Shown here one piece after another: positions 10,221 through 42,009 of a stretch of DNA of 63,627 bases. The stretch is taken from NCBI GenBank assembly GCA_023248635.1, contig JAHFED010000033.1:1-63627 (forward strand), written 5' to 3'. The DNA is from Myxococcales bacterium. GTDB taxonomy: Bacteria > Myxococcota > UBA727 > VGSZ01. Each line of letters starts with the position of its first letter. Within the stretch, counting starts at the first letter, position 1. The position numbers and the translations under genes are program-made. The notes beneath the pieces are model-generated. The model saw nothing but the letters and a program-made list of their open reading frames with translations, had not been told where the DNA came from and searched no databases.

Positions 10221-10357
10221 GCCAGGCTAGGGTGCTCCGCGCCGACATCTCGCGCAAATTCAGTGCTCTGCCGGTCGGCCACAATACCAGCGGATGTGCG
10301 CTGACCCAGGCTGCCCGCGGTCGACGTCGCAGGCGTCGTCGGACTAGCTTCGCCGCG

Positions 10358-13291
10358 ATGCGCGACTGGCTCCTCGATGCGCTGCAGATCCGCGAAGGAG
10401 AGCTTCGTCGGGTGTCGAGCCTCGCGCTCTATCTCGTGCTCGCCGTCTCGACCTTCATCACCGGCCGCATCGCGCGCGACGCACTCTTTCTGACGGCCTT
10501 TCAGAAGGAAGACCTCGCATACATGTACATTTCGGTTGCCATCATGGTGCCGATTCCAGCCTATCTTTTTGCGCGCATCGCCGATCGGTTTCGGCGGGAC
10601 AAGATGCTGGTCGTCACGTTGATGGCGACGGTCGTCTTCATGGGCGTCGTGCGCGGCTTGCTCCTTTCGAAGCAGCCCTGGGTCTACATACTACTGTACA
10701 ACTTCGTCGAAATCTACGGCACTTTCCTGATCCTTCAATTCTGGACATTCGCCGGCGATTTGTTTTCCTCGCGCGAAGCCAAGCGCCTATTTCCCATCGT
10801 CTCAGCCGGCAGCGTCGTCGCCGGCATCGTCTGCGGTCTGGCGGTCTCGGGACTGGTGCGGGCCATTGGCACCGACAACTTGCTGCTGGTGCAGATGGGC
10901 CTGCTCTCCCTCGCTGCCGTCGTCATCGCGCGCCTGGGGCATGCCGAGCGTGGGCGCCTGCGCGAAGCCGTCGTCAAACAACATGTGGGGCCGCGGCGAA
11001 AGACCAAGCCCGAGTTTCACGTGCGCGTCGAGACCAAGGGCGTCTTTCAGAGCAAGCACCTGCGCATCATCGCCGCGATGACAGTGGCCACCTTCGTGAC
11101 GGTGCCGCTCATCGACTACCAGTTCAAGGTGTTGGTGAAGGAACACTTCACCGCGGCCGCAGCTGCCGGCGGCCCTGGCGTCGTCGACACCGACGCCATG
11201 AGCGCGTTCATGGGGCTGTTCTCCGCCGTCACGGGCGTCATCGCCGCCGTCATGCAGCTCGGGTTCACGGGCCGCATCCTCGAGCGTTTCGGCGTGGTGT
11301 TTTCGCTGCTGCTCTTGCCCTTCACCCTGCTCGCGGGCCTGTTGTCGATGCTCGGGGGATTGCTGCAGGCCTTCGCCGCCGCCGTATTCACCAAGGGCGC
11401 CGAGAACTCATTTCGCTACAGCATTTATGATGCGACCATGCAGGTTCTATACACTCCAGTGCCATCAAATGTGCGCGGGCGCGCCAAGACCGTGATCGAC
11501 GGGATCATCAAGCCCGTCGCCGGAGGATTCGCTGGAGCTGTCATGGTGCTGCTGGTGGGTCCGATGCATGTGCCCGTCACCAGCCTTGGTGCTGTTGCTG
11601 TTGCTTTGGTCTTGTGCTGGGTCGCGCTGATTTTTCGCATGCGAGGGGAGTACGTCAAGGAGCTCTTGGCCACGCTGCGCAAGCGCAAGCTCGACTTCAC
11701 CGACAGGAACCTGGTCATCAACGACGTCGCGGCTGTCAACGTCTTGCGCCAGCGCTTGAGCTCTCCCGAGGATGGCGAGGTGAGAAATGCCATCGAGCTC
11801 TGCCGCCGGGTGCAGGGCCACGATCTCTCGCCTGAGCTCGCGCGCTTGCTCGAGCACAAGAATCCAGAGCTGCGCATCGGTGCCCTGGAGATCCTCGGCA
11901 CCCGGCATCTGGCCGTGGACCTGGAGCTGATCGAGGCCCGTTTCAACGACGACAACGACGACGTCCGCGCTGCCGCCATTCGGGCTTTTTGCGCGCTGGT
12001 GGGCGAGCCGGCCGTCGCCATCGTCGAGCCTCATTTGCGCAGTGCCTCGCCCGCGGTGCGCGGGGCAGCCGTGGCCAGCATCATCCGCCACGGCGGCCTC
12101 GAGGGCATTCTCCACGCCGCCGACGACCTCAAGGCCATGCTGTCCTCTCAGGATGAGAGCGTTCGCTATGCCTGCGCCCAGGTGCTGCAAGAGGTCGGCT
12201 TTCAGCGCTTCTATGCACCCGCCCAGAAGCTGCTTGCCGACGAGAGCCCGCGGGTGCGCACCGCCGCTATCGCTGCCGCCGGCGCCATGCGCGCTCCTGA
12301 GCTCGTGCCCACCCTCATCTACAAGTTGCGCCACAGAGACACCCTGCGGGCCGCGCAGATCGCCCTCGCTCAATACGGTGACGAGGTCATCGAGACCCTC
12401 GATCGTGTGCTGGCGCAGCCCAAAGAAGACCCGACCTTGCGCCGGCAGATCCCGCGCATCCTCGAGCGCATTGGCAGCAAGCGCGCCCTCGAGATCTTGA
12501 TGCAGCACCTCGACGTCGACGACGGCGAGACCCGCAAAGAAGTCGCGCGGGCCACCTCGCGCCTGCGGGAGCGCCTCGGAGCCACCATCGACGAAGCCCG
12601 CGTCAAGAGGCTCGTCGTCGTCGAAGTGCAGCGTCACTACCAGCTGCTGGCCATGGTCTTTGACCTGCGCGAGCTCGCCGACGACCCCCGCGATCTGCTG
12701 CGCGATGCTCTCGACGAACGCCAACGCAAGAGCCTCGACCGCATCTTCCGCCTGCTCGCCACCGTGCACCCACCCAAGGCCATCGAGACCATCTGGGGCA
12801 ACCTGACGTCGTCGGCGCCGGCCCTGCGGGCCAACGCCGTCGAAGTGCTCGACAACCTGCTCGACGCCGACGACAAGCGCCGCCTCTTGCCCATCGTCGA
12901 AGCCGCTGGTGAGCGCAGCCTCGACAACGCCGCCGCCAACCGGGCTCTGGAGCGCGTGCTCGAGCGCGGCACCGAGCTGTACACCCTAGAGCGCAAGAAG
13001 CCCGAAGAGTGGTTGCAGGAGCTCTTGCGCGGCGACGACGAATGGCTGTGCGTCTGCGCTCTGCACGTGGTGAAGCAGTTGAGCCAGCGGCGCCTCATCG
13101 ACGACGTCGCCGTGCATGTGCGCGCCCGCTCGCCGCTCGTCCGCGAGACTGCCTTCCTGTCATTGGGCGTGCTCGATCAGCCGCACCATTTCTTGAAGCG
13201 CTGCGCGGGGATCGAAGACGAAGACGTTCGGGTGCAACGGGCTTTGGTGCACCTGCGCGCCGAGGCCGAGAAGGCGTTGGCGGCGGCGTAG
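10358..13291 (+). CDS. TLC (ATP/ADP-translocase-like, Npt1/Npt2-type) membrane transporter domain fused to C-terminal HEAT repeats
   Basis: The N-terminal ~460 aa have multiple TM helices and resemble the TLC family (ITGRIARDALFLTAFQKEDLAYMYISVAIMVPIPAYLFARIADRF). The C-terminal ~500 aa carry repeated HEAT-like units (PELRIGALEILG; DVRAAAIRAF; PAVRGAAVASIIRHGG; ESVRYACAQVL; PRVRTAAIAAAGAM). I took ATG 10358 (MRDWLLD) as the start. Confidence 0.65.
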   Translation: MRDWLLDALQIREGELRRVSSLALYLVLAVSTFITGRIARDALFLTAFQKEDLAYMYISVAIMVPIPAYLFARIADRFRRDKMLVVTLMATVVFMGVVRGLLLSKQPWVYILLYNFVEIYGTFLILQFWTFAGDLFSSREAKRLFPIVSAGSVVAGIVCGLAVSGLVRAIGTDNLLLVQMGLLSLAAVVIARLGHAERGRLREAVVKQHVGPRRKTKPEFHVRVETKGVFQSKHLRIIAAMTVATFVTVPLIDYQFKVLVKEHFTAAAAAGGPGVVDTDAMSAFMGLFSAVTGVIAAVMQLGFTGRILERFGVVFSLLLLPFTLLAGLLSMLGGLLQAFAAAVFTKGAENSFRYSIYDATMQVLYTPVPSNVRGRAKTVIDGIIKPVAGGFAGAVMVLLVGPMHVPVTSLGAVAVALVLCWVALIFRMRGEYVKELLATLRKRKLDFTDRNLVINDVAAVNVLRQRLSSPEDGEVRNAIELCRRVQGHDLSPELARLLEHKNPELRIGALEILGTRHLAVDLELIEARFNDDNDDVRAAAIRAFCALVGEPAVAIVEPHLRSASPAVRGAAVASIIRHGGLEGILHAADDLKAMLSSQDESVRYACAQVLQEVGFQRFYAPAQKLLADESPRVRTAAIAAAGAMRAPELVPTLIYKLRHRDTLRAAQIALAQYGDEVIETLDRVLAQPKEDPTLRRQIPRILERIGSKRALEILMQHLDVDDGETRKEVARATSRLRERLGATIDEARVKRLVVVEVQRHYQLLAMVFDLRELADDPRDLLRDALDERQRKSLDRIFRLLATVHPPKAIETIWGNLTSSAPALRANAVEVLDNLLDADDKRRLLPIVEAAGERSLDNAAANRALERVLERGTELYTLERKKPEEWLQELLRGDDEWLCVCALHVVKQLSQRRLIDDVAVHVRARSPLVRETAFLSLGVLDQPHHFLKRCAGIEDEDVRVQRALVHLRAEAEKALAAA

Positions 13292-14213: not shown

Positions 14214-15614
14214 TCAGGTGTTCGGGGTGCGGGCGGCGCTGATCCCCGCGGGGAAACCCGCATGCCCGCCATCGTCCATGAACTGCCATTGCGCGCGGTT
14301 GTGGGCGTTGGGCCCCGAGCCGTAGCGGCGATAGCTGCTGCCATCGCTGCCGGTTTCCATGGGGTTCTCGTTTGCCCGCGGCCCGCCGACGTCGACGTGT
14401 CGGAAGCGGCTGCCGAAGACGCTGGCGTCGCCGAAGTGGGCATCGCGGCCGGCGTCGTTGGTGCCGCGGAAGAAAGCGACGTCCTGGGCTGCTCGGCCGT
14501 TGTCGGTGTCGGCCCAGCCACGAATGGCGCTCTCTTGGCCGTAGAGGCAGTCGAGCAGCTCGAGGCGATCGGCGCGCAAGCCGGCGCCGTCGGGCTGGTG
14601 CCGCAGAGCCGAGGCAAGGGCCTGACCTCCGGCGGAGTGGGCAGAGACGACCTGGGTGCCGACGTTGCTGATGCCGGCGCTGGCGAGGGCGCTGTCGGTG
14701 GTGGCGGCCTGCGAGCTCACGTTGCCCCAGTCCGTGTGGTATTGGCGGCGCGAGGCATTGTCGCGCGTCGACAACATCAAGCGCGTGTTGCTGCACTCCG
14801 GCAGCACGAAGACGGTCTGCGGATCGGCGGCTTGCACCTCTTGGATGCGCACGGTGCCGCCGCCGGCGCTGCCGCGGGGCTCGGCAACGGTCCCGTTCCA
14901 CCCGTGATAGTGGGTGTGCACGCGGGCGGGCTGAGCAGGGTTGAAGCCTGGGGGAACGACGGTGAGCACAGGCTGGCCACCGTTGCCCTCGGGATTGCTC
15001 ACCACCAAGCGTCCGCCACGCGTCAGCGTGTCTCCAAAGTTGGTGCGCGCGTTTTCGATGGTGTTGGCCGTCCGTTGACCCGTGGAGCCGCTGGCGCGCA
15101 GGTCGGCGAGCTGCTGGGGCGTGACGGTGGCGACGTCGTAGCCGTTGCTGACCGTGGTGGCAGGGCCGGTGGGGCCGATGGCAGGGGCGGTGGGGGTTGG
15201 CGTCGTCGGGTTCGGCGTCGGCGCGGCGGGCAAAGGCGGGTCTCCCCGGCGGGCGGGCGGATTCCCCACGGCAGTGGCGGCTTGGGGTGAAGGCGACGCA
15301 GGCGTGCGTCGCAGCTCGCGCAGGGTCTCGGGGCCAACGATGCCGTCGCGGGCGATGTGCTGGCGCGTCTGGAAGGCGAAGACGGCGTCGTGGGTGGCGC
15401 GATCGAAGCGTCCCGTCACGGGTAGGTTCAACTGCGACTGCAGCTCCGAGACTGCCTCGCCCCTGCTGCCTTCGTGCAGCCAGCCCGCGCGCCCACTCTG
15501 GATCTGCCGATCGAGGGCCCCCGGCGTCGACGCAGCCGGCGCCGTCGGCGTCGGGTCTTTGCTGTGCGAGCTGGCAGGGACACCGCCGGGGCGAACGCTG
15601 AGGGGGTCGGTCAT
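14214..15614 (-). CDS. peptidoglycan-binding (PG_binding_1) domain protein with Pro/Thr-rich linker and uncharacterised C-terminal domain
   Basis: N-terminal segment GSRGEAVSELQSQLNLPVTGRFDRATHDAVFAFQTRQHIARDGIVGPETLREL matches the PG_binding_1 pattern. The rest is unassigned. Confidence 0.5.
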   Translation of the reverse strand: MTDPLSVRPGGVPASSHSKDPTPTAPAASTPGALDRQIQSGRAGWLHEGSRGEAVSELQSQLNLPVTGRFDRATHDAVFAFQTRQHIARDGIVGPETLRELRRTPASPSPQAATAVGNPPARRGDPPLPAAPTPNPTTPTPTAPAIGPTGPATTVSNGYDVATVTPQQLADLRASGSTGQRTANTIENARTNFGDTLTRGGRLVVSNPEGNGGQPVLTVVPPGFNPAQPARVHTHYHGWNGTVAEPRGSAGGGTVRIQEVQAADPQTVFVLPECSNTRLMLSTRDNASRRQYHTDWGNVSSQAATTDSALASAGISNVGTQVVSAHSAGGQALASALRHQPDGAGLRADRLELLDCLYGQESAIRGWADTDNGRAAQDVAFFRGTNDAGRDAHFGDASVFGSRFRHVDVGGPRANENPMETGSDGSSYRRYGSGPNAHNRAQWQFMDDGGHAGFPAGISAARTPNT

Positions 15615-29186: not shown

Positions 29187-30392
29187 TCAGCCTGCCGATC
29201 CCTGGTTGGCAATGGGCGATTCTGGCAGGAACCAGAGGCCGAAGGCGCTGAGGGCAATGGCGCCGACGCCGGTCCACAACGCCGGTGACCATGAACCAGC
29301 GTGCTCCTTCCAGGCGCCCATGGCGAAGATGAAGACCACCGAAGCTTGGCCCACGAGGGCAAAGACGCCGTTGCTGGTGCCGACGGGCGTGGGAGCGGTG
29401 ACCTCGGCCCCGTATTGATAGGCGACCGGCGCAGCGCCGATGGTGCAGAAGCCGACGCAGAAAAACGCCGCGCCCAAAGATGCAAACGACGACGACAGCG
29501 GCACTGCCGCCAGGCTGGGGACCGCCAAGCCAAAGGCGGTTAACAACAAGGGTCTGCGGCGCTGGATGCGATCGGAGATCGCCGGCAGCACGATGGCGCC
29601 GACCACACCCCCGATGAGCATCAGGGCCGCGAGGTCGCCAGCGCTGGTGGCAGCGATGCCGCGTTCGACGACGACACCCTCGACCCAGGTGGAAACGCCA
29701 TTCATCACGCCGTTGGCGATGAACAGGGAAAAGGACAGCAGCCACATGTCGCGGCGCCTGAGCATGGAGCTGAGGCCGCCGACGACGAGCGCGCGTTCGT
29801 CATCGTTGTGGTCGTCATGTTTGCTGCGCGCGGGTTCCCGGGCAACAACGATGAAGAAGAGGGCGGAGGCGGCGGCAGCAGCGGCGTAGATCCTCTGCAT
29901 GCCGGCGACGCCGTGGGCGACGACGAGATCGGGGGTGAGGGCTTCGCCGATCGCGATGCCGACGAAAGTTGCCAGGAAAGCGACGCCCGTCATGGTGGCG
30001 CGGTGTTTGGGCGTGAACCACAACGCCGCGAGCTTGGTGAAAGCATTCAGCAAGAAGGGCTGTGACAGGGCGAGACCCACAGTGCAGGCGACAGCGGCGG
30101 CGTAGCTGTCGACGAATGCGCGCCCGATGCTGAAGACGCCGAGCAGGAGGGCCCCGAAGGACACGGCCTTGCGAAAGCCGAAGACGTCGATGGCCCAGGC
30201 TGCGGGCATCGACGCCGGCACGTAGATGAACATGTAGAGCATCGCCAGGGTCCCGATGGCGAGCTCGTCTCGGCCGTAGAAATCCTGCGCGGCCTTTGTC
30301 ACGGGGGCAAAGCAGATCCAGAGCATCTGCGTGGTCACGTTGATCGCGAGGAAGGCGACGACAGTCAGGGCACGAGCAGGGCCAGTGGACAT
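29187..30392 (-). CDS. MFS transporter
   Basis: 12-TM profile in two six-helix halves with a central charged loop (ARSKHDDHNDDERALV). An alternative start lies at 30419. Confidence 0.7.
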   Translation of the reverse strand: MSTGPARALTVVAFLAINVTTQMLWICFAPVTKAAQDFYGRDELAIGTLAMLYMFIYVPASMPAAWAIDVFGFRKAVSFGALLLGVFSIGRAFVDSYAAAVACTVGLALSQPFLLNAFTKLAALWFTPKHRATMTGVAFLATFVGIAIGEALTPDLVVAHGVAGMQRIYAAAAAASALFFIVVAREPARSKHDDHNDDERALVVGGLSSMLRRRDMWLLSFSLFIANGVMNGVSTWVEGVVVERGIAATSAGDLAALMLIGGVVGAIVLPAISDRIQRRRPLLLTAFGLAVPSLAAVPLSSSFASLGAAFFCVGFCTIGAAPVAYQYGAEVTAPTPVGTSNGVFALVGQASVVFIFAMGAWKEHAGSWSPALWTGVGAIALSAFGLWFLPESPIANQGSAG

Positions 30393-30473
30393 GAACACTG
30401 CGGTAGCATGATCGGCCACTCGGACGTCGTCGGTTCACTCTCCGCTCGGTCTCCTTCTCAGCGTCGTCGCCAT

Positions 30474-33685: not shown

Positions 33686-34375
33686 ATGAGCAGCGACGTC
33701 GAAGGCGTGTGCGTCGTCGACGACGACGTCGGCATCGACACTGAGGCGTTGCGCGCCGCCATCCACAAGAGCGCCTTGATCGGCGAGAGCCAGCTGGTCG
33801 GCGCCTTCGAGGCCACCCGCGGTTTCGGCATCGCTTGTCACCGCAGCGCCCTCCAAGAGGCCATCGCCCGCGCTCCCTGGTTGGCCCCGTTCGTCGACGT
33901 CGTGCTCGATGGCGAGCGCTTGCAGCGTCTCTTGCGCCTGTCGCTGGCCGAGCGGCTGCTCGGTGCCTTCCTCGGCGACATCAACGCCCTCTACTTGAAC
34001 GTGCTGGTGGTTCCACCGGGGGGCGCGGTGGCCCTGCACGTCGACAGCACCCTCGGCGTCCACGGCGACGGCCCCGTGTTCGCGCCGCGGGCGGTGGGCG
34101 TCTTGTACGTCGACGTGCCCGCCGACCTGTGCGGGGGAGAGCTGCGCCTCTTCGCCGCGCATTCCCTCCAGGCCACAGTGACCCCCAAGGTCGGGCGTCT
34201 GGTCTTGTTCCGGGGATCCCTCGGGCACGAAGTGACGACGACGACGACGACGGCCCCGCGGGTGAGCTGTGTGGCCGAGCTCTACGCCCTGCCCCGGGCG
34301 CGCTTGGCCCTCTTGCCGCGGGTGCGGGTGCAAAGCCGCGGCTTCGACGACGTCTTGGCCCGACTGCGCCGCTGA
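33686..34375 (+). CDS. 2OG-Fe(II) oxygenase superfamily protein (prolyl-4-hydroxylase-like)
   Basis: HxD...H pattern (LHVDSTLGVHGD ... GSLGHEV) with a likely 2OG-binding Arg (GRLVLFRG) in a jelly-roll-like arrangement. Low certainty. Confidence 0.4.
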   Translation: MSSDVEGVCVVDDDVGIDTEALRAAIHKSALIGESQLVGAFEATRGFGIACHRSALQEAIARAPWLAPFVDVVLDGERLQRLLRLSLAERLLGAFLGDINALYLNVLVVPPGGAVALHVDSTLGVHGDGPVFAPRAVGVLYVDVPADLCGGELRLFAAHSLQATVTPKVGRLVLFRGSLGHEVTTTTTTAPRVSCVAELYALPRARLALLPRVRVQSRGFDDVLARLRR

Positions 34376-34537
34376 GCCCCGGCTGCCGTGTGGCGCCGAC
34401 GTTGACCTCTGCAGGAACGCCACACTTTGACCGCCGCGAGAGGCGCGGCGGATCGCGTCCCAGCGCACACCACCCGCATGGCACGGGCATCGCACGCGCG
34501 GGGCCGACGGCGCAGCCACGCGCCGCTGGAGGATTTG

Positions 34538-35032
34538 ATGCGGAAGCTCTTTTTCGTCGTCGTCGTCGTCGTTGCCGCCGCCGCCTGTCAGCCCCCTGAG
34601 GACAAGGCTGCGCTGCGCTCCGAGGTCGAGCGCCGCGCCGAAGTGCAGGAGCCAAAGGCGATGCCTCCCCAGGATCCCCGCATCGACGGTGCCGCAACCC
34701 CGGTGGCCCCCCTGCCCCCCCAACAGCGCGCCGAGCTCAACGCCGAGCGCGCGGCCTTCCAGCAGAAGTCTCTGGAGCGCCTCAACACCGCCGAGACCCA
34801 GGCCCAAGCCGTGATCACCAAAGCGGGTACGTCGTCGAAGGAGCCAGCGATCACCAACGCCGTCGTCCAAGATGCGGGCCTGGTGCAGAGCAACATTCAA
34901 AGCATGAGAGACAAGCTGCCCGACCTGCTGCACACGACGTCGGATGCCACTTGGATGATGACGGAGAAGTCCATCGACGCGCAGATCGCCGAGATCGAAA
35001 AGAGGATCAGCGCGCTGGAACACCGCCTCTGA
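34538..35032 (+). CDS. hypothetical lipoprotein
   Basis: MRKLFFVVVVVVAAAAC lipoprotein signal followed by a helical, coiled-coil-like Gln/Ala-rich sequence. Confidence 0.4.
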   Translation: MRKLFFVVVVVVAAAACQPPEDKAALRSEVERRAEVQEPKAMPPQDPRIDGAATPVAPLPPQQRAELNAERAAFQQKSLERLNTAETQAQAVITKAGTSSKEPAITNAVVQDAGLVQSNIQSMRDKLPDLLHTTSDATWMMTEKSIDAQIAEIEKRISALEHRL

Positions 35033-35048
35033 CGGTGTGGTGGCGCGC

Positions 35049-36188
35049 TCAAACCAGCGAGCGCGCCACGATCTCTTTCATGATCTCGGTGGTGCCGGCG
35101 TAGATGCGCTGCACCCGAGCATCGAGCCAAGCGCGGGCGATCGGGTACTCGTGCATGTAGCCGTAGCCCCCGTGCAGCTGCAGGCATTCGTCGACGACGC
35201 GGCCGAGCATTTCGCTGGTCCAATACTTCGCCATCGACGCCTTCGCCGGCGTGAGCTCACCGGCGTTCAACTCGACGATGCAGCGGTCGACGAAGGCCTG
35301 CCCGAGCTCGCACTCGGTGGCCATCTCGGCGAGCTTGAAACGTGTGTTCTGTTGTTTTGACAGTGGTTTGCCAAAGGCTTTGCGATCTTTGACATAATCA
35401 ATCGTCAGGTTGAGCGCGGCCTGGGCGCCGGCGACGCACCCGACCGCGACGACCATGCGTTCTCTCGCCAATTCCTGCATCAGATAAACAAAGCCCTGAC
35501 CTCGCTCACCCAAGAGATTCTCTTTGGGTACGCGGCAGTCCTCGAAGTGCATCTCGGTCGTGTCTTGGGCCATGAGCCCAAGCTTCTTCAGCCGTCGGCC
35601 GCGCACGAAACCGGGGGCGTCTTTTTCGACGACGATGAGGCTCATGCTCTGCCAGCCGGCGCCGTCGTTTTCGGTGTTGGCAGCGACGATGACGAGGTCA
35701 CACAGCAGCCCGTTGGAGATGAAGGTCTTGCTGCCGTTGATCACCCAGGAGTCGCCGTCGTCGACGGCGCGGGTGGAGATCGCTTGCAGATCGCTGCCGG
35801 TGCCGGGCTCGGTCATGGCGATGGCGCCGATGATCTCGCCGCTGGCCATCTTGGGCAGCCACTTCTTCTTCTGCTCTTCGGTGGCGTTGTGCTCGATGTA
35901 AGGCGCAACGATGTCGCTGTGCAGAGGAAAGAACACATCCGAGCTCTGCGATGACGCCAGCTCCTCGCTGACGACGGCGGAGTAGCGAAAGTCGAGGCCC
36001 AGTCCGCCGTAGTCGGCGCTGGTCGTCATGCACAAGAAGCCCTGGGCACCGGCCTTCGTGTAGACCTCGCGGTCGACGATGCCGTTTTGCAAGAAGCGCT
36101 CGTAATGAGGGGTGATCTCGGCCTGGACGAACTTCTGGAATGAGGTCCGGAAAGCCCGCAATTCGTCGTCGTGAAGCTTGTCGTGCAT
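35049..36188 (-). CDS. acyl-CoA dehydrogenase
   Basis: ACAD fold: N-terminal helical domain, central domain (GAIAMTEPGTGSDLQ; GSKTFISNG), and C-terminal domain with the catalytic Glu region (QLHGGYGYMHEYPIARAWLDARV). Confidence 0.85.
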   Translation of the reverse strand: MHDKLHDDELRAFRTSFQKFVQAEITPHYERFLQNGIVDREVYTKAGAQGFLCMTTSADYGGLGLDFRYSAVVSEELASSQSSDVFFPLHSDIVAPYIEHNATEEQKKKWLPKMASGEIIGAIAMTEPGTGSDLQAISTRAVDDGDSWVINGSKTFISNGLLCDLVIVAANTENDGAGWQSMSLIVVEKDAPGFVRGRRLKKLGLMAQDTTEMHFEDCRVPKENLLGERGQGFVYLMQELARERMVVAVGCVAGAQAALNLTIDYVKDRKAFGKPLSKQQNTRFKLAEMATECELGQAFVDRCIVELNAGELTPAKASMAKYWTSEMLGRVVDECLQLHGGYGYMHEYPIARAWLDARVQRIYAGTTEIMKEIVARSLV

Positions 36189-36309
36189 GCCCCACCCTTC
36201 CTGTGATTGACATTGATGTCAACTCCGCTGCCCAGGGGTGGAGCAAGGGGTCAGAAGATCGACGAGGCCTCGACGCCGTTGGTATGGTCGACGACGGCGT
36301 GAGGTCACG

Positions 36310-37782
36310 ATGAAGTTCTGCTGCGAGCGTTGCCAGACCCGATATTCGATCGGCGACGAAAAAGTGAAGGGCAAGGTCCTCAAGATCCGCTGCAAGACCT
36401 GCGGCAACATCATCGTCGTGCGCGAGCAGATGGCCCAGGGAGAGGCCGTGCCCCAGGCTCTCGCTGCCGGCGGCGGTGGGAGTCCGGCACCCTCTCGTCC
36501 CGAGCCCACACAGGCCTCACCCAATCCCTTGGCAACGGCCCCTGCGGCCCAATCCGCTGGCACGGCGTCCAGCGAGCTCGAGTGGTTCGTCGCCATCAAA
36601 GGCAAGCAGCACGGACCCGCCCGCGCCGACGACATTGGTCGCCTCTACCGCGAGGGCAAAATCACCGAGCGCACCTATCTCTGGCACGACCAGCTGCCGT
36701 CGTGGACGCGGTTGAAAGACCTGCCCGAATTCGCCTCGGTGATCGCTGAAGGGCCCGCCCCGCGTCGACCGCCGCCGCCGCCGCCCTCGGAAGATGGCGC
36801 CGAGATCGTGAACTTCGAGGCCGCCCGCGCCCAACGCCAGGGCCAACAGCCACCGCAGCCGGCCGCGCCGCCGCCCGGTCCTGTCACCCAAGATCCCTTC
36901 GCCTCCATCGCCGCCGCGCCGGGCGGTGCAGTGGCCGAGGCGCCGCGTGAGTCCACGCGCGTGTTCATCATGCAGGCAGGCCTGCACAACCGCAGCAAGA
37001 AGCAGCGCATCTACGCCGGCGTTGCGCTGCTCGTCACCCTCGCCTTCGTCTTGCTCTGCGTCGTCGACTACCAGCTCGACATCTTCGGCTTGAAGAAGGC
37101 CCTCGACGCCGTCGCCGTCAGCGCCGGCATCAAAGAGAGTCCCGAGGAGCCCGGCGCGGAGTGGGACGACAGCGAGGTCGATCCCGCCCTGAAGTGCCGA
37201 CTCAATCCCAACCCGGCCGAGTGCGAGAAAAAAGAGAAAGAGCGCATCGTCGCCAAGCGCAAACAGCGCGCCGTCAAAGCCGTGGGTGGCGGCACAGCCC
37301 TGTCAGGCGACGACCTCGCGGGCGCTTTCGGCGCGGGTGGCGAGGGCAGTGGCAAGGTCGCGCACGCCGCCATCGACGAAGGCGGCATGATCGCCGTCGG
37401 CGGCGGTCCCTCTGCCGAGGAGATCAAAAAGGCGCTCGGCGGCGGCAAGGCCGGACCCAGCGGTCCCAAGGCGCACATCGAGACCCCCAGCGTCGCCGGC
37501 ACCACCATCGACGCCGAAAACGCGAGCAAGGTCGTGCGCGATGGTCAGGCGGGCATTCAGATCTGCGTCGACGACGCCATGAAGCAGGGGGAGAGCATTC
37601 CCAAGCGGGCCACGCTGGTCATCGCCATCACGCTCAAGGGGACCGTCGATCTCGCCAAGATCAGCGAAGCCGTCGTCAACGCGACCAGCCTCGGCTCGTG
37701 CCTGGCAAAGACGGCGAAGAAGTGGAAGTTCGCGCCGCCGACGGAGCCCGCCGACCTCGAGATCCCTCTCGTGCTCCAGTAA
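36310..37782 (+). CDS. zinc-ribbon + GYF (DUF4339-like) + TM + AgmX/PglI C-terminal domain protein (GltJ/AgmX-like architecture)
   Basis: N-terminal MJ0042-type zinc ribbon (MKFCCERCQTRYSIGDEKVKGKVLKIRCKTCGNIIVV), a GYF-like block (EWFVAIKGKQHGPARADDIGRLYREGKITERTYLWHDQLPSWTRL), a Pro-rich segment, a TM helix (IYAGVALLVTLAFVLLCVV), and a C-terminal domain (IQICVDDAMKQGE...GSCLAKTAKKWKFAPPTEPADLEIPLVLQ) fitting the AgmX/PglI/TonB-C-like pattern. Confidence 0.55.
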   Translation: MKFCCERCQTRYSIGDEKVKGKVLKIRCKTCGNIIVVREQMAQGEAVPQALAAGGGGSPAPSRPEPTQASPNPLATAPAAQSAGTASSELEWFVAIKGKQHGPARADDIGRLYREGKITERTYLWHDQLPSWTRLKDLPEFASVIAEGPAPRRPPPPPPSEDGAEIVNFEAARAQRQGQQPPQPAAPPPGPVTQDPFASIAAAPGGAVAEAPRESTRVFIMQAGLHNRSKKQRIYAGVALLVTLAFVLLCVVDYQLDIFGLKKALDAVAVSAGIKESPEEPGAEWDDSEVDPALKCRLNPNPAECEKKEKERIVAKRKQRAVKAVGGGTALSGDDLAGAFGAGGEGSGKVAHAAIDEGGMIAVGGGPSAEEIKKALGGGKAGPSGPKAHIETPSVAGTTIDAENASKVVRDGQAGIQICVDDAMKQGESIPKRATLVIAITLKGTVDLAKISEAVVNATSLGSCLAKTAKKWKFAPPTEPADLEIPLVLQ

Positions 37783-37788
37783 CCAACC

Positions 37789-38670
37789 GTGCCCCAGCGC
37801 GTCCGCATCGTTGGAGCCTCGAGCCCCTTCCCGCCCGCCAAGCTCGAGGCTGGGGTGGCCCGCCTGCGCGCTGCCGGCTTCGACGTCGACGACCGCGACG
37901 TCTTGCAGGGCACACACGCGTACTTGAACGGCGACGACGCCACCCGCGCTCGACTGCTGGAGCAGGCCCTGCACAGCGACGTCGACGTCGTCTGGCTGGC
38001 CCGCGGCGGCTACGGTCTCACCCGCATCGCGCAGCGCCTGGTCCTGCCCGCGCGCCTGCCGGTGGTGGTGGGCTTCTCCGATGTGACCGCGCTCTTTGCG
38101 CGCTTGCACAAGGAAGGGCGGCTGCGGGGCGCCATCCATGGTCCGCTGGCCACCTCGGTGGCGGGGGAGCCCGACCAGAGCCTGGCCCATCTGGTCGACG
38201 TCGTCGCCGGCGGCCCGGGTCTGCCCCTGCCCGAGCTGCGGGTGTTGCAGGGTGGCGGTGACGTCACAGCCCCTCTCTTTGCCGCGAACCTCTGCGTGCT
38301 CAGCGCCCTGTGCGGAACACCGCTGCAGCCCGATCTGCGCGGCCAGCTGCTGGTGCTCGAGGAGATCTCCGAGCGTCCCTACCGCCTCGACCGCATGCTC
38401 ACCCAGCTGATCCACAGCGGTACCCTGCAGGGCGTCGCCGCCGTCGTCGTCGGCCATCTCAGCGGCTGCGTGGAGCCGGTGGTCAAAAACGCCACGCGCG
38501 ATGCAGCCCCCGGGCCCGAGCAGGTCTTCGTCGAGCGCCTGGGCTCCCTCGCGGTGCCCATCGTCGCCGGTTTGCCGGTGGGCCACGAAGCCCCCAACCG
38601 CGCGCTCCCCCTGGGCCGCCCCTGCCGGCTGCACATCGACGCTGTGCGAGCGACGCTGAGCTGGTCGTGA
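37789..38670 (+). CDS. ldcA: LD-carboxypeptidase (peptidase S66, muramoyltetrapeptide carboxypeptidase)
   Basis: S66 nucleophile motif GFSDVTAL, plus conserved GGYG and C-terminal His/Glu region. It starts 6 bp after the previous gene. Confidence 0.75.
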   Translation: MPQRVRIVGASSPFPPAKLEAGVARLRAAGFDVDDRDVLQGTHAYLNGDDATRARLLEQALHSDVDVVWLARGGYGLTRIAQRLVLPARLPVVVGFSDVTALFARLHKEGRLRGAIHGPLATSVAGEPDQSLAHLVDVVAGGPGLPLPELRVLQGGGDVTAPLFAANLCVLSALCGTPLQPDLRGQLLVLEEISERPYRLDRMLTQLIHSGTLQGVAAVVVGHLSGCVEPVVKNATRDAAPGPEQVFVERLGSLAVPIVAGLPVGHEAPNRALPLGRPCRLHIDAVRATLSWS

Positions 38671-39728
38671 ACCCAGCGCCAGCGCGAAGAGCGGCAGTGC
38701 AAGCCGTGCTCGACGACGTCGTCGCCCGCGGGCTCACCCCCGGCGTCGCCGCTGCCGTCGTTGCTGCCGATGGACACTCTGAACGCTTCTTCAGCGGGCA
38801 CAAGCACGACAGCGACAGCGACGCCGTCGACGCCGACACCATCTACGACCTCGCGAGCCTCACCAAGCTGCTGTGCACCACCGTGCTCATGGCCCGGGCC
38901 GTCGACGACGAGGTCATTGCTCTCGACGAGCAGCCCTTCGCGCGCTGGCCTGGGGTCACGGTCGCTCATCTGCTGCAGCACCGCTCCGGTCTCTGCGCCC
39001 ACCGACCCCTGCACGAGCTCGCGATCCGGGCCCGGGCCACGGGACAGCAGCAGGGCCGCGACCTCGTCGTCGACGCAGTCTTGGGCACGCTGCCCGAGGC
39101 TGCTCCGGGCGTGCGCACTCTCTACTCGGACCTGGGCTTCATCGCTCTGGGTGCGCTGCTCGAGCGCAGGCGCGAGCAACCCCTCGATCAGCTCTTCGCG
39201 TCGTCGTCGTCGTCGGGACTGCGCTTCGTTTGCTTGGGGCGCGAGGGTTACCATCCTTGCGTTTCGCAGGTCGCCCCGACCGAACGCTGCCTGTGGCGAC
39301 GTCGCGCAGTGCACGGCCAGGTCCACGACGAAAACGCCTTCGCCATGGGGGGGATCGCGGGCCACGCGGGGCTCTTTGGCAGCCTCGTCGACGTCGAAGG
39401 CGCCGCCCTGGCTTTGCTGGGTTCGATCCAACAAGACACGACCCTGCGCGCCTTTGCCCGCGCACACGGCGAGCGCGGCCTCGGCTTCGACAAGGCCACG
39501 CCGGGGGGGAGCACGGGCGAGGCCCTCGGTCCAGCGAGCGTCGGGCACCTGGGCTTCACGGGCACCAGCCTCTGGCTCGATCCGGACTTCGTCGTCGATG
39601 ACCACGCTCCGCCGGGCGCGGCCTTTGTGCTGTTGGCCAACACCCTCTTTCCCACGCGCGAGGGCGTGCTCGCCCGCAACAAGGAGCTGCGCCGCGCGTT
39701 CCACCGCGCCGCCGCCGGCCTCGACTGA
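38667..39728 (+). CDS. serine hydrolase, beta-lactamase/transpeptidase-like family
   Basis: SxxK motif (ASLTKLL), YSD-like (LYSDLG) and HAG (IAGHAGLFGS) motifs. The start is uncertain; I placed it at GTG 38667, overlapping the ldcA stop (GTGA). No ATG exists before the conserved core. Confidence 0.6.
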   Translation: MNPAPARRAAVQAVLDDVVARGLTPGVAAAVVAADGHSERFFSGHKHDSDSDAVDADTIYDLASLTKLLCTTVLMARAVDDEVIALDEQPFARWPGVTVAHLLQHRSGLCAHRPLHELAIRARATGQQQGRDLVVDAVLGTLPEAAPGVRTLYSDLGFIALGALLERRREQPLDQLFASSSSSGLRFVCLGREGYHPCVSQVAPTERCLWRRRAVHGQVHDENAFAMGGIAGHAGLFGSLVDVEGAALALLGSIQQDTTLRAFARAHGERGLGFDKATPGGSTGEALGPASVGHLGFTGTSLWLDPDFVVDDHAPPGAAFVLLANTLFPTREGVLARNKELRRAFHRAAAGLD

Positions 39729-39736
39729 GGTTTGGA

Positions 39737-40186
39737 TCAGCCCACGACGCGCAACAGGGCGATGGCGACGAAGGCGGCCACGGCTGCCACGCGCAGCAGC
39801 TGGGCGCGCGGCTGGTCACGTTGGTCGATGGCCACCGAGCGCACGAACGAGAGAAAGCAGACCAGGGCGGCCAGCGGCACCACGCCGAAGCCGACGACGG
39901 CGAGGTCGAGGTCGCGGGCGACGCCACCGCAGGCGGCGACAACGACGGCGACGAGGGCCAGCAGCGGTCCCAGAGCCGTGGGGCGGTGCCGTCGCTTCAT
40001 GTCCATGGCGTAGGCGCCCAGGGCGAAGGCGCCGCGGTCCACGAGGAGCGCGGCCAGCACAGGGGCAGCGATCATCGACGCCGTCAGCACTTGCATCTGG
40101 GCTTCTCCGATGGCGGGGCCCCCACAGGCCAACGCCGGAGCAGCCACCAAGAGCCCGAGGGAGGGCAGCGCGAGCTTTTTGGTCAT
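39737..40186 (-). CDS. hypothetical membrane protein
   Basis: 149 aa; signal or TM at the N-terminus and 3-4 hydrophobic helices. No family recognised. Confidence 0.3.
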   Translation of the reverse strand: MTKKLALPSLGLLVAAPALACGGPAIGEAQMQVLTASMIAAPVLAALLVDRGAFALGAYAMDMKRRHRPTALGPLLALVAVVVAACGGVARDLDLAVVGFGVVPLAALVCFLSFVRSVAIDQRDQPRAQLLRVAAVAAFVAIALLRVVG

Positions 40187-40261
40187 GGGCCGATCGTATC
40201 GACGTCGTCGACGCGGTGCTGGGGGCGGCGGCGCTGAGACAGACCTACATGCGGTGAGGAA

Positions 40262-40333
40262 TGGGCCCGGCTGGATTCGAACCAGCGCACGGTCGGTTAT
40301 GAGCCGAATGCTCTACCGCTGAGCTACGGGCCC
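40262..40333 (-). tRNA. tRNA-Met (anticodon CAT; could alternatively be tRNA-Ile2/lysidine type)
   Basis: Reverse complement GGGCCCGTAGCTCAGCGGTAGAGCATTCGGCTCATAACCGACCGTGCGCTGGTTCGAATCCAGCCGGGCCCA folds as a cloverleaf. Acceptor is 7/7 bp (GGGCCCG/CGGGCCC), D stem GCTC/GAGC, anticodon loop CTCATAA, T stem GCTGG/CCAGC with TTCGAAT loop. CCA is not encoded. Confidence 0.85.
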
Positions 40334-40395
40334 CACGGTTGGTTGTCCCCCGCCGACGTCGACGGCGCAACGGCTTCCCGGCTGCTCGGCTCGGG

Positions 40396-42009
40396 TCAGG
40401 GGAGCTGCTCGACGGTGGCCCGGGCCTCAGCCTCTTCGTCATCAGACAGAGAAGCCGGCTCGACATCGTTTGATTTGATGTACGATGCAAGCTCACCAAT
40501 GGCGTAGGCCAGGCCGATGCGGGCGGTCTCGAGATCGAGGCGGGCCCGGGTGGCGTCGACGGAGGCGGCGAAGGCTCCCAAGCGGGCATCGCTGACGTCG
40601 CTTTGGGTGATGGCTCCTTCGGCGTAGAGACTGTCGGCTTGGGCTGCGGTCTGGTTTGCCAGCTGCGCCAGCTCCGCGGTCGTCGTCATGTTTTCCTTTT
40701 TCAGCGCGAGGTCGTCGAGGGTGCCCCGCAGCTCGCGCTCGATGCTCTCTTCGAGTTGGTGGGTGCGCAGCAGCTCTTGGGTGAGTCGAGCGTTGGCGCT
40801 GTCGATGGCGCCGATGGTCTGACCGCCGTCGTAGAGGGGCAGCGTGCCCTGCACGATGACCGCACCTGTAAAGGGTTGGGATGCAAAACCAGCAGTATTT
40901 GATGTATAGCGACCCTGCGCGACCAGTTGAAAGCTCGGCAAGAAGCGCATCCAAGCGTCTTGTTTGGCGCGATCGGCGAGGGCGAGCATTTCTTTTTGCA
41001 CCCGCAGGTCGACGCGGGCGTCGCGGGCCCGTTGCAGCAGCGTGTCGAAGGGCACCGATTCGTTGAGCGCTTCTACCGCTGGGGGAGCTTCGACGTCGAA
41101 GTCGTCGATGACGCCGAGGAGGCCGGCGAGCCCCGCCTTGGCAGTGCGCAAGCCGCCGCGGGCCTGGCGCTCTTGGTGTTCGGCCTTTTTGACCTCGAGC
41201 AAGGCCCGGTCAACGGCGAGATCGGTGACGTAGCCCAGCTCATGGCGCGACGTCGTCGTCGTCAAGTGGCGCTTGGTGCTCTCGACCTGCTCGCTGGCGG
41301 TGTGCACCAGCTCTTGGGTGGCGGCGAGCAAGTAGTAGGTGCGGGCCACGCCCCAGAGCACGCTGGCCTTGGCTTGCTGCGAGGAGAGGCGCGTGATTTC
41401 GACGGCGCCGTAGGCGTTTTGCAGCAGGGGCAGGGCGCGGCCGTTGAAGAGGGGCATGGCGAGGGTGACGTTACCGGCGACGGTGTGGGCCGGCGAGATC
41501 ACGAAGCTGGGGACTTCGGCTGCGCGCAGATCTTTGGCGGTGGCGCGCAGGGCCGCGGCTTGTTCGGCGGCGGCGCGGCGGGCGATGGGATCGGGGTTCT
41601 GGGCGGCGCCGGCGTCGGTGATGTTGGCGATGGAGTCAAAGAGCAGGGCCTGCTGGGCGAATTGGTCGGGGCTGCCGAGCTCGGCCTCCTGTTCGGGGAA
41701 GCTGTAGGTGTAGTCGGCGTGCAGGCTGATGTTGGGCAGGATCACGGCCCAAGCTTTGGTGACGTTGGCCTTGCTCTCGTCGAGACGGGCCTGGGTGATG
41801 CGCAGATCGGTGGAGCGCTCGGAGGCCCGGCGAAAGGCGTCGTCGAGCGTGATCAGCTGCGGGTGCTCGACGGGGCGCAGGCCGGCGTAGCCTGTGGTGC
41901 CAGCAGGGGGGCCCGAGGTCGGACCCGCGGGGGCGTCTTGGGCCAGGGCCGGCAGCGCACCCAGCAGCAAGGCGACGACGACGACGAAGGGCAGGGGGCG
42001 CGCGCTCAT
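40396..42009 (-). CDS. outer-membrane efflux protein, TolC family
   Basis: Signal peptide (PLPFVVVVALLLGALPALAQ) and two tandem OEP repeats with the characteristic helical/barrel alternation. Start ATG 42009 overlaps the marR stop (ATGA). Confidence 0.8.
   Translation of the reverse strand: MSARPLPFVVVVALLLGALPALAQDAPAGPTSGPPAGTTGYAGLRPVEHPQLITLDDAFRRASERSTDLRITQARLDESKANVTKAWAVILPNISLHADYTYSFPEQEAELGSPDQFAQQALLFDSIANITDAGAAQNPDPIARRAAAEQAAALRATAKDLRAAEVPSFVISPAHTVAGNVTLAMPLFNGRALPLLQNAYGAVEITRLSSQQAKASVLWGVARTYYLLAATQELVHTASEQVESTKRHLTTTTSRHELGYVTDLAVDRALLEVKKAEHQERQARGGLRTAKAGLAGLLGVIDDFDVEAPPAVEALNESVPFDTLLQRARDARVDLRVQKEMLALADRAKQDAWMRFLPSFQLVAQGRYTSNTAGFASQPFTGAVIVQGTLPLYDGGQTIGAIDSANARLTQELLRTHQLEESIERELRGTLDDLALKKENMTTTAELAQLANQTAAQADSLYAEGAITQSDVSDARLGAFAASVDATRARLDLETARIGLAYAIGELASYIKSNDVEPASLSDDEEAEARATVEQLP

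Follow-up and report, generated by a model that had tools for sequence, protein, structure and literature searches.

The gliding-motility proteins GltJ (AgmX) and GltG (PglI) of Myxococcus xanthus share a domain order of zinc ribbon, linker, GYF domain, transmembrane helix, disordered periplasmic stretch and AgmX/PglI domain, and gltJ sits in the glt cluster beside genes such as gltG-gltI. Generally, GYF domains bind proline-rich peptides. In GltJ, MglA-GTP is a ligand of the linker, the proline-rich segment of AglZ is one of the GYF domain, and MglB is one of the zinc ribbon (PMC11135422). Zinc ribbon-GYF (ZnR-GYF) combinations are regarded as widespread switch modules, probably with ligands other than those known for GltJ (Attia et al., 2024, PMC11135422), and a relay of signals across the membrane has been proposed for the proteins that carry them (PMC11135422). 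Here we report on a locus in which a gene of this architecture stands directly upstream of two genes with relatives among the enzymes of peptidoglycan recycling. It is located at positions 36310-39728 of contig JAHFED010000033.1 (assembly GCA_023248635.1, Myxococcales bacterium), a stretch of 63,627 nucleotides that is called the window in the following, and its three genes are named g1, ldcA and g3.

With regard to peptidoglycan recycling, the removal of the stem peptide is the role of AmpD in Escherichia coli, and the trimming of tetrapeptides to tripeptides is established for the S66 peptidase family. E. coli also possesses PBP4B (YfeW), a membrane or periplasmic protein encoded in the gene order murQ-murP-yfeW, the role of which is to our knowledge still unclear. 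In Bacillus subtilis, the PF00144 protein AmiE (YbbE; PMC10653849, Table 1) acts as an amidase that removes peptides from N-acetylmuramic acid (exo-MurNAc-L-Ala amidase) and is encoded in murQ-murR-murP-amiE-nagZ-namZ (PMC8054146, PMC5061867); AmiE is secreted (PMC8054146). Moreover, the joining of a GH3 domain with a beta-lactamase domain is known from RmNag3 of Rhodothermus marinus (PMC6987092).

We consider it rather likely that g1 and ldcA-g3 represent two independent units, which have become juxtaposed in one sublineage of uncultured Myxococcota. In the window, the three open reading frames are packed on the plus strand (Table 1) and bracketed by opposite-strand genes on both sides; their third-position GC content amounts to 0.82-0.89 in DNA of approximately 67% GC, in which genuine genes are distinguished by values of 0.8-0.9. 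The sequence-only reading had given the spacings and both enzyme families correctly. The ldcA gene, with both peptidase S66 domains, begins 6 bp after g1, where the bases CCAACC separate the TAA stop from the GTG start, and g3, which encodes a beta-lactamase/PBP-like hydrolase with a PF00144 domain, overlaps the TGA stop of ldcA with its GTG start (shared GTGA, 4 bp). The public gene call for the contig (metagenome assembly ENA ERZ27276474, 81 kb) has the same genes, but places the start of g3 30 bp later at 38697. We discarded this later start and adopted 38667, as relatives retain an RTGA overlap between the stop of ldcA and the start of g3.

The conserved unit is ldcA-g3, independent of g1. 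On three long contigs with g3 genes of 47-55% identity (L088-L090), g1 is absent and ldcA immediately precedes g3, overlapping it by 4 bp. When metagenomes were scanned with the g3 alignment, 80 more distant relatives of 30-43% identity came up, and in 23 of them ldcA was the adjacent upstream gene in the same orientation. Outside the g1-containing clade described below, no g1 was present near any of the 26 loci with ldcA followed by g3, within the sequence fetched. The RTGA stop/start overlap occurs in 15 of 30 distinct loci of this type, down to 31% identity, and all 18 LdcA-coupled g3 relatives examined lack a signal peptide and start straight into the mature domain. A literature search on the pairing of ldcA with a serine hydrolase found no relevant report in the collection of papers covered. 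As a side observation, the pair in L088-L090 is preceded by an open reading frame of 51-61 amino acids (aa) and a UPF0158 gene, while the gene of an ECF-type sigma factor converges downstream.

The neighbourhoods of g1 were collected in two ways, by exact-protein look-ups and by scanning a single genome for each species and then running tblastn with the window proteins. Three contexts were found. The order of the window, in which a divergent acyl-CoA dehydrogenase (ACAD) gene precedes g1, ldcA and g3, recurs in L003, L008, L009 and L012 with g1 being 59-65% identical (the contig of L008 ends inside ldcA); the ACAD adjoining g1 in L003, L008 and L009 is 80-93% identical. The spacer between g1 and ldcA amounts to 6, 9, 10 and 19 bp in four of these five clade genomes, and to approximately 104-149 bp in L003, depending on the start codon taken. 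In L010 and on the P0037 contig (g1 58% and 53% identical), g1 is followed by genes for a PAS histidine kinase and UvrD. The remaining context comprises 11 distinct loci with g1 of 30-55% identity, which have an opposite-strand 6-phosphofructokinase (PFK) gene before g1 and/or an RluA-type pseudouridine synthase gene after it; this PFK/RluA context is the widest and seems ancestral. In a neighbour-joining tree, the ldcA-linked g1 genes fall into one clade. Since the three-gene order was found in five genomes only, the association of g1 with peptidoglycan recycling is confined to a single lineage. Thus, the linkage of an envelope protein to recycling enzymes claimed in the sequence-only reading is a real adjacency in one clade, but a lineage-specific one, with units that are separable elsewhere; likewise, joint conservation of the three genes holds for the window, L003, L008, L009 and L012, but not for 13 further g1 loci and the 26 loci with ldcA and g3. 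As regards the PFK/RluA context itself, the PFK gene is divergent upstream of g1 and the pseudouridine synthase gene follows at approximately 50 bp in L005-L007, L011 and L013-L021; the arrangement has no obvious functional logic, and its neighbours suggest no pathway.

These distributions bear directly on the idea of a true functional operon, in which the TonB-like domain of g1 would serve as a sensor or anchor at the envelope and its ZnR-GYF module would control or localise LdcA and g3. Spacings of 6 bp and -4 bp, the lack of an internal plus-strand terminator, a g1-ldcA spacer of at most 19 bp in four of five clade genomes despite a g1 identity of approximately 60%, and the proposed relay of signals across the membrane by ZnR-GYF proteins (PMC11135422) would all fit such an operon. 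We nevertheless regard it as unlikely, given the 13 g1 orthologue loci without ldcA or g3 nearby and the 26 ldcA-g3 loci without g1. Furthermore, no conserved proline-rich ligand of the GYF domain was seen on reading the LdcA and g3 sequences, for which no systematic search was made. The unrelated ACAD gene is equally syntenic in the ldcA-linked clade, so the conserved gene order there is not in itself a sign of shared function. Slightly less likely still is a specific recruitment within the clade, by which g1 would have become a trans-envelope partner of LdcA and the presumed amidase, for instance one whose periplasmic domain senses or attaches to sites of wall turnover while the recycling enzymes are gathered on its cytoplasmic side; if true, this would represent a three-gene operon coupling the state of the envelope to stem-peptide recycling.

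Joint transcription is a different matter. Because of the spacings of 6 bp and -4 bp, g1, ldcA and g3 are probably transcribed together in the clade from the spacer between ACAD and g1, which by its position would be the sole space for a promoter driving all three genes. A scan of positions 35900-40400 found no sigma-70 consensus, which says little for a Myxococcota genome, and no terminator-like site on the plus strand inside the three-gene block, which is likewise a weak test for this phylum. An Rfam search of 34000-41000 detected a tRNA-Met gene alone and no regulatory RNA upstream of g1, and a repeat search gave just short GC-rich, codon-like repeats that were taken as compositional noise.

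Turning to the enzymes, the ldcA product appears to be a cytoplasmic LD-carboxypeptidase of the S66 family, outside the curated E. coli-type equivalog. It matches Peptidase_S66 with 65.5 bits and Peptidase_S66C with 107.8 bits (Pfam; E-values of 6.6e-31 and 6.5e-18), and aligns over its full length with the solved LD-carboxypeptidases 6UUK, 1ZL0 and 3G23. The motifs GFSD (S97), LEEISE (E191/E192) and VGHE (H266) are present, which we take to hold the Ser/Glu/His triad by comparison with LdcA of Pseudomonas aeruginosa, and there is neither an N-terminal hydrophobic segment nor a signal peptide. Hence, the protein shares both S66 domains, the triad motifs and the predicted cytoplasmic location with described LdcA proteins. 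It differs from them in that its gene is translationally coupled to a PF00144 hydrolase gene and in that it misses the cut-off of the E. coli-type muramoyltetrapeptide carboxypeptidase equivalog (NF008424, 118.4 bits versus 378).

The g3 product matches PF00144 with 103.4 bits against a cut-off of 27 (E-value 1.8e-29) and carries S64-L-T-K67, Y153-S-D155 and H294-L-G-F-T-G, of which S-x-x-K, Y-S-D and H-L-G are invariant in 24 relatives. Its homologues number thousands, the closest 120 of them being 41-79% identical and approximately 350 aa long. The best NCBIfam family is PBP4B (NF002968), although with 59.6 bits versus a cut-off of 385. A comparison with E. coli YfeW gave 30% identity (E-value 7e-24) and an hhalign probability of 99.7%, and the two proteins have the block GQVHDExAF..MGGxxGHAGLF in common. 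Taken together, g3 appears to belong to the same subfamily as PBP4B without being its orthologue. No signal peptide was detected in g3. Searches of solved structures with the single sequence and with a profile retrieved only weak matches, Mb2281c and EstB. With the AlphaFold2 model, which has a predicted local distance difference test (pLDDT) value of 94, Foldseek retrieved generic family VIII esterases as well as LovD, DD-peptidases and AmpC, with TM-scores of approximately 0.6-0.7 and without a specific functional neighbour; among the fold neighbours are the R61 DD-peptidase, alkaline D-peptidase and D-amino-acid amidase.

As the top Foldseek matches comprise LovD, class C beta-lactamases and esterases of family VIII, g3 could also be read as some generic esterase or beta-lactamase that has no relation to peptidoglycan and stands after ldcA by accident. 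This we consider hardly credible, given that ldcA precedes g3 in 26 other loci, 12 of them with the 4-bp stop/start overlap, that recycling genes are enriched among the neighbours of g3 relatives, that the class C beta-lactamase model NF033085 yields 28.5 bits versus a cut-off of 415, and that the protein lacks a signal peptide.

The enrichment became visible in a survey of the flanks, for which 121 open reading frames around 83 loci of g3 relatives were scanned with Pfam and the commonest families tabulated. MurQ-type SIS proteins were found seven times among the 121, three-domain Mur ligases (Mpl-like) six times, sodium:solute symporters five times, the NamZ exo-muramidase and sigma-70 factors four times each, and GH3 proteins three times. 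Apart from the symporters and sigma factors, these families correspond to the gene set of the B. subtilis operon murQ-murR-murP-amiE-nagZ-namZ. In addition, in nine of ten long g3 relatives tested, a GH3 domain of the NagZ type (N-acetylglucosaminidase) is fused to a beta-lactamase domain, the g3-like part being C-terminal (L092, L093, L100, L101, L105, L108, L147, L156, L158). Where the open reading frame is complete and the start reliable, these fusions comprise approximately 930-1000 aa; most have signal peptides and several come from low-GC genomes. Their beta-lactamase domains rank among the nearest metagenomic relatives of g3 (31-39% identity). Unlike g3, which is stand-alone and predicted to be cytoplasmic, such RmNag3-type proteins are fused and mostly secreted. 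In the window, ldcA is the sole recycling-type neighbour of g3, so the associations with nagZ, murQ and namZ are to be understood at the level of the family.

By its gene context, the link of g3 to peptidoglycan recycling is well supported. Like g3, AmiE and PBP4B are PF00144 proteins, and their family is encoded together with genes for the catabolism of MurNAc or muropeptides. However, AmiE is secreted, whereas g3 and its LdcA-coupled relatives lack signal peptides, and the partner genes of AmiE and PBP4B are nagZ or murQ instead of ldcA. We therefore place g3 as a predicted cytoplasmic member of the PBP4B/AmiE subfamily, which probably acts as an AmiE-type amidase, the bond cleaved being deduced from this comparison. 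The main rival to this assignment is a cytoplasmic DD-carboxypeptidase or D-aminopeptidase, which would trim pentapeptides or D-amino-acid peptides and in this way feed or complement LdcA. PBP4B, the best-matching NCBIfam family, is said to possess DD-carboxypeptidase activity, the R61 DD-peptidase, alkaline D-peptidase and D-amino-acid amidase are fold neighbours, and pairing with LdcA would fit a sequential trimming of stem peptides. Pentapeptide turnover products, on the other side, are minor in most bacteria. Both the fusion with GH3 domains of the NagZ type and the presence of NamZ and MurQ as neighbours correspond to the nagZ-amiE-namZ arrangement of B. subtilis, in which the MurNAc-L-Ala bond is cleaved by the PF00144 enzyme (PMC8054146). 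A carboxypeptidase or aminopeptidase role is thus conceivable but rather doubtful.

The third protein, g1, is predicted to be a single-pass inner-membrane protein with a cytoplasmic zinc ribbon, linker and GYF domain and a periplasmic TonB/TolA-like domain. This order, proposed in the sequence-only reading, was confirmed by Zn_ribbon_4, GYF_2, NF033768, AlphaFold2 and Foldseek, and the two profile matches that mattered most for it, GYF_2 (E-value 5e-13) and NF033768 (40.7 bits), were both obtained. In Pfam, Zn_ribbon_4 covers residues 1-35 (E-value 1.4e-9) and GYF_2 residues 92-141, and the NCBIfam model MJ0042_CXXC also matches in the region of the zinc ribbon. NF033768, the model of the AgmX/PglI C-terminal domain, covers residues 400-489 at a score just above its cut-off of 40, which is marginal for g1 taken singly; all 24 aligned g1 orthologues match it, with a best E-value of 9.3e-17. 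In the AlphaFold2 model, which was built on the orthologue alignment, the zinc ribbon is small and made of beta structure, and the linker at residues 41-87, which is also poorly conserved, is disordered (pLDDT <50). The model further contains a GYF domain with pLDDT >90, a long helix at residues 228-255, a periplasmic region that is helical in part and, at residues 394-488, the alpha/beta C-terminal domain, again with pLDDT >90. The hydrophobic stretch at residues 234-252 has a mean Kyte-Doolittle hydropathy of 2.78 over its 19 residues, and its sequence, IYAGVALLVTLAFVLLCVV, contains neither His nor any other obvious motor-coupling residue. Foldseek retrieved the GYF domain of GltJ (7Z3C) as top match, followed by eukaryotic GYF domains and the zinc finger of ZitP, and for the C-terminal domain those of TonB, FusB and TolA with probabilities up to 0.92. 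Among solved structures, only three are related in sequence: the zinc ribbon of GltJ (7ZOK, E-value 8e-7), its GYF domain (7Z3C, E-value 1.5e-6) and ZitP.

The orthologues of g1 form a group of their own. A database search yielded approximately 98 full-length relatives of 480-570 aa and 32-65% identity, all from metagenomes or metagenome-assembled genomes (MAGs); the few that carry names are labelled Myxococcota or Deltaproteobacteria. In the orthologue alignment, the four zinc-binding cysteines, the GYF core, the PPPPPP stretch, a DPF motif, the block STRVFIMxAGLxNR and two pairs of periplasmic cysteines are invariant or nearly so. Within the proline-rich stretch, P154 and P156-158 are nearly invariant across the orthogroup, and one might speculate that it serves as a ligand of the GYF domain in the same protein, which would make it self-inhibiting or oligomerising. 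In the juxtamembrane block, T216-M221, A223-L225 and R228 are invariant. This block occurs in every orthologue locus (L008-L020) and was absent from 67 remoter ZnR-GYF loci in the same scan; therefore, the g1 set is considered a distinct orthogroup, for which STRVFIMxAGLxNR appears usable as a signature.

The sequence-only reading had gone further and seen in g1 a GltJ/AgmX motility-type protein, of which the domain order stands and the assignment does not. As in GltJ and GltG, the order runs from zinc ribbon, linker and GYF domain through the transmembrane helix and a disordered periplasmic stretch to the AgmX/PglI domain, and the zinc-binding cysteines of GltJ are at the same positions as C5, C8, C28 and C31 of g1 (PMC11135422). 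Nevertheless, the GltJ equivalog model NF033761 scores 67.2 bits on g1 versus a cut-off of 450, its best stretch covers only residues 1-78, and it spans 671 positions compared to the 490 aa of g1. Run on the 24 orthologues, the same model reached a best E-value of 1.4e-30, still far below the cut-off, and g1 and its orthologues gave partial matches to the GltJ and GltG models. Among the annotated open reading frames of the 63.6-kb window (approximately 60, most of the larger ones), none was found to be a glt or agl gene, and such genes were likewise absent from the three genomic contexts of g1 orthologues that were examined. Hence, unlike gltJ, g1 lies outside a glt cluster, and its product has its own juxtamembrane motif and its own proline-rich stretch within the same protein. 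Ten distant ZnR-GYF proteins of the same overall architecture also remained below the GltJ cut-off. Their sources are Polyangia, Haliangiales, Bradymonadia and further Myxococcota, one of them being Lujinxingia vulgaris, which is in culture; therefore, the architecture is common across the Myxococcota, in agreement with the wide distribution of ZnR-GYF modules described by Attia et al. (PMC11135422).

All this makes it very improbable that g1 is a divergent GltJ orthologue of its lineage working in the Agl-Glt gliding machine. Such a role would be in line with the identical domain order, with the GltJ zinc ribbon and GYF domain as best matches among solved structures and with the partial matches to the GltJ and GltG models, but not with a score of 67 bits versus 450, the lack of glt and agl genes in the three orthogroup contexts and the annotated part of the window, the absence of the g1 signature motif from other ZnR-GYF proteins, and an architecture that is common in Polyangia, Haliangiales and Bradymonadia. 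We rather see g1 as a likely paralogue of GltJ and GltG, forming a separate orthogroup known from MAGs only. With the described ZnR-GYF switch modules it shares the contiguous zinc ribbon and GYF domain, the disordered linker and an attached transmembrane and extracytoplasmic region. The genes of such proteins often lie beside those of receptor-like membrane proteins (PMC11135422), whereas g1 orthologues lie beside PFK and RluA genes and, in one clade, ldcA-g3.

The likeness to TonB and TolA also has limits. The TonB-family transmembrane helix contains S-x-x-x-H as motor-coupling motif. Like TonB and TolA, g1 is single-pass and ends in a C-terminal alpha/beta domain of the TonB/TolA fold according to Foldseek. 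However, it lacks the S-x-x-x-H motif as well as any His in the transmembrane helix, the TonB model TIGR01352 yields 15.5 bits (E-value 0.016) below its cut-off of 27.1, and its gene adjoins neither exbBD nor tolQR. Moreover, TonB and TolA have no counterpart of the large ZnR-GYF module that g1 carries on the cytoplasmic side.

On this basis, our reading of two independent units can be put into functional terms. As a unit, ldcA and g3 would be old, coupled in translation and cytoplasmic, with the processing of stem peptides from peptidoglycan as their task. In the proposed sequence of reactions, g3 would remove the stem peptide from MurNAc- or anhydroMurNAc-peptides, by analogy with the AmiE reaction, and LdcA would then trim the tetrapeptide L-Ala-D-Glu-mDAP-D-Ala (mDAP, meso-diaminopimelic acid) to a tripeptide that can be re-ligated. 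Separately, the periplasmic TonB-like domain of g1 may bind a partner in the outer envelope, and its zinc ribbon, linker and GYF domain may bind a proline-rich or other cytoplasmic ligand, so that g1 would act as a relay or anchor in the manner of GltJ. In the clade, a rearrangement would have placed g1 directly upstream of ldcA-g3.

Several points weigh against this reading. Regarding the gene order, L011, which has the PFK context, groups with L012, which has the ldcA context, in the neighbour-joining tree, so that perhaps more than one rearrangement took place or the tree is imprecise. The short spacer between g1 and ldcA persists although g1 has diverged to approximately 60% identity, which could mean selection for co-expression beyond inheritance, and synteny cannot separate such selection from plain inheritance here. 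With respect to g3, the amidase assignment draws on gene context and on one characterised relative, AmiE, compared by its family and gene neighbourhood; the closest solved structure reaches only a TM-score of approximately 0.7 and no more than 22% identity; and E. coli PBP4B is reportedly a weak DD-carboxypeptidase. As for g1, GltJ is the single model from which its function is deduced by analogy.

The coordinates of the three genes, of the domains of g1 and of the flanking features are listed in Table 1.

Table 1. Coordinates of the g1-ldcA-g3 locus and its flanks in the window
Feature	Position	Strand	Description
Acyl-CoA dehydrogenase (ACAD) gene	35049..36188	-	flank outside the unit; divergent from g1
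ACAD/g1 spacer	36189..36309		121 bp; between the divergent ACAD gene and g1
g1	36310..37782	+	490 aa; ATG start, TAA stop
g1 zinc ribbon	36310..36420	+	residues 1-37; C5, C8, C28 and C31 invariant (orthologue alignment A1)
g1 GYF domain	36577..36750	+	residues 90-147; GYF_2, pLDDT >90, Foldseek 7Z3C
g1 proline-rich stretch RPPPPPPS	36766..36789	+	residues 153-160; directly after GYF domain
g1 juxtamembrane signature STRVFIMQAGLHNR	36952..36993	+	residues 215-228; orthogroup-specific
g1 transmembrane helix	37009..37065	+	residues 234-252; single strongly hydrophobic stretch of 19 residues
g1 AgmX/PglI (TonB/TolA-like) C-terminal domain	37489..37776	+	residues 394-489; predicted periplasmic; C419 and C464 invariant
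ldcA	37789..38670	+	293 aa; GTG start, TGA stop; peptidase S66
g3	38667..39728	+	353 aa; GTG start; beta-lactamase-fold serine hydrolase
149-aa open reading frame	39737..40186	-	flank outside the unit; convergent, 8 bp past g3 stop; 3' boundary
tRNA-Met (CAT)	40262-40333	-	Rfam; between the 149-aa open reading frame and a TolC-like gene

The 149-aa open reading frame at the 3' boundary matched no Pfam or NCBIfam family. Its third-position GC content is 0.88, its N-terminus is hydrophobic and ends in ...PALAC, and there is one further hydrophobic stretch; it stands beside g3 only on the contig of the window itself (L001, L002). Transfer RNA genes are frequent points of rearrangement, and the tRNA-Met gene at the 3' edge may bear on the origin of the gene order in the clade.

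Elsewhere, the window encodes ATP synthase beta and epsilon subunits, a 2-oxoglutarate oxygenase, nuo-like subunits, a Ser/Thr kinase, a TolC-MarR-HlyD-RND efflux set and fatty-acid oxidation genes. The MFS transporter at 29187-30419 (minus strand) was considered as an AmpG-type muropeptide permease and dropped, as it has only generic MFS matches far below the cut-offs. A long minus-strand open reading frame at 26632-29745 matches MVP_shoulder (E-value 2.3e-19) and Vault_3, and seems to encode a bacterial protein with domains of the eukaryotic major vault protein (MVP); because it overlaps the MFS gene as listed, its true start is probably located farther downstream. The 1019-aa product of 10232-13291 (plus strand) combines a membrane domain resembling TLC ATP/ADP transporters and MFS proteins with several HEAT repeats. 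At 14214-15614 (minus strand), a 466-aa protein has a PG_binding_1 match and a weak SleB match on the same N-terminal stretch; it is thus peptidoglycan-related, at a distance of 20 kb.

For the biology of these Myxococcota, the adjacency of a motility-type gene to recycling enzymes, as it was stated in the sequence-only reading, matters little: it is restricted to a single lineage, and the phylum has many GltJ-like proteins with ZnR-GYF and TonB-type C-terminal domains, g1 being just one of them. The result does keep g1 from being annotated as a gliding-motility protein, and the coupling of ldcA with g3, together with the PBP4B-like recycling context, is a modest but testable by-product. It concerns a large, unnamed subfamily of beta-lactamase-fold proteins, including PBP4B, which is consistently tied to genes of peptidoglycan recycling and which has one cytoplasmic branch translationally coupled to LdcA and another branch that is secreted and fused to NagZ. 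We tentatively put forward, while leaning somewhat to the sceptical side, that cytoplasmic PBP4B/AmiE-type hydrolases coupled to LdcA may represent a widespread, AmpD-independent route of stem-peptide release. The recycling context offers a concrete, testable function for the subfamily and suggests how bacteria without AmpD might free their stem peptides.

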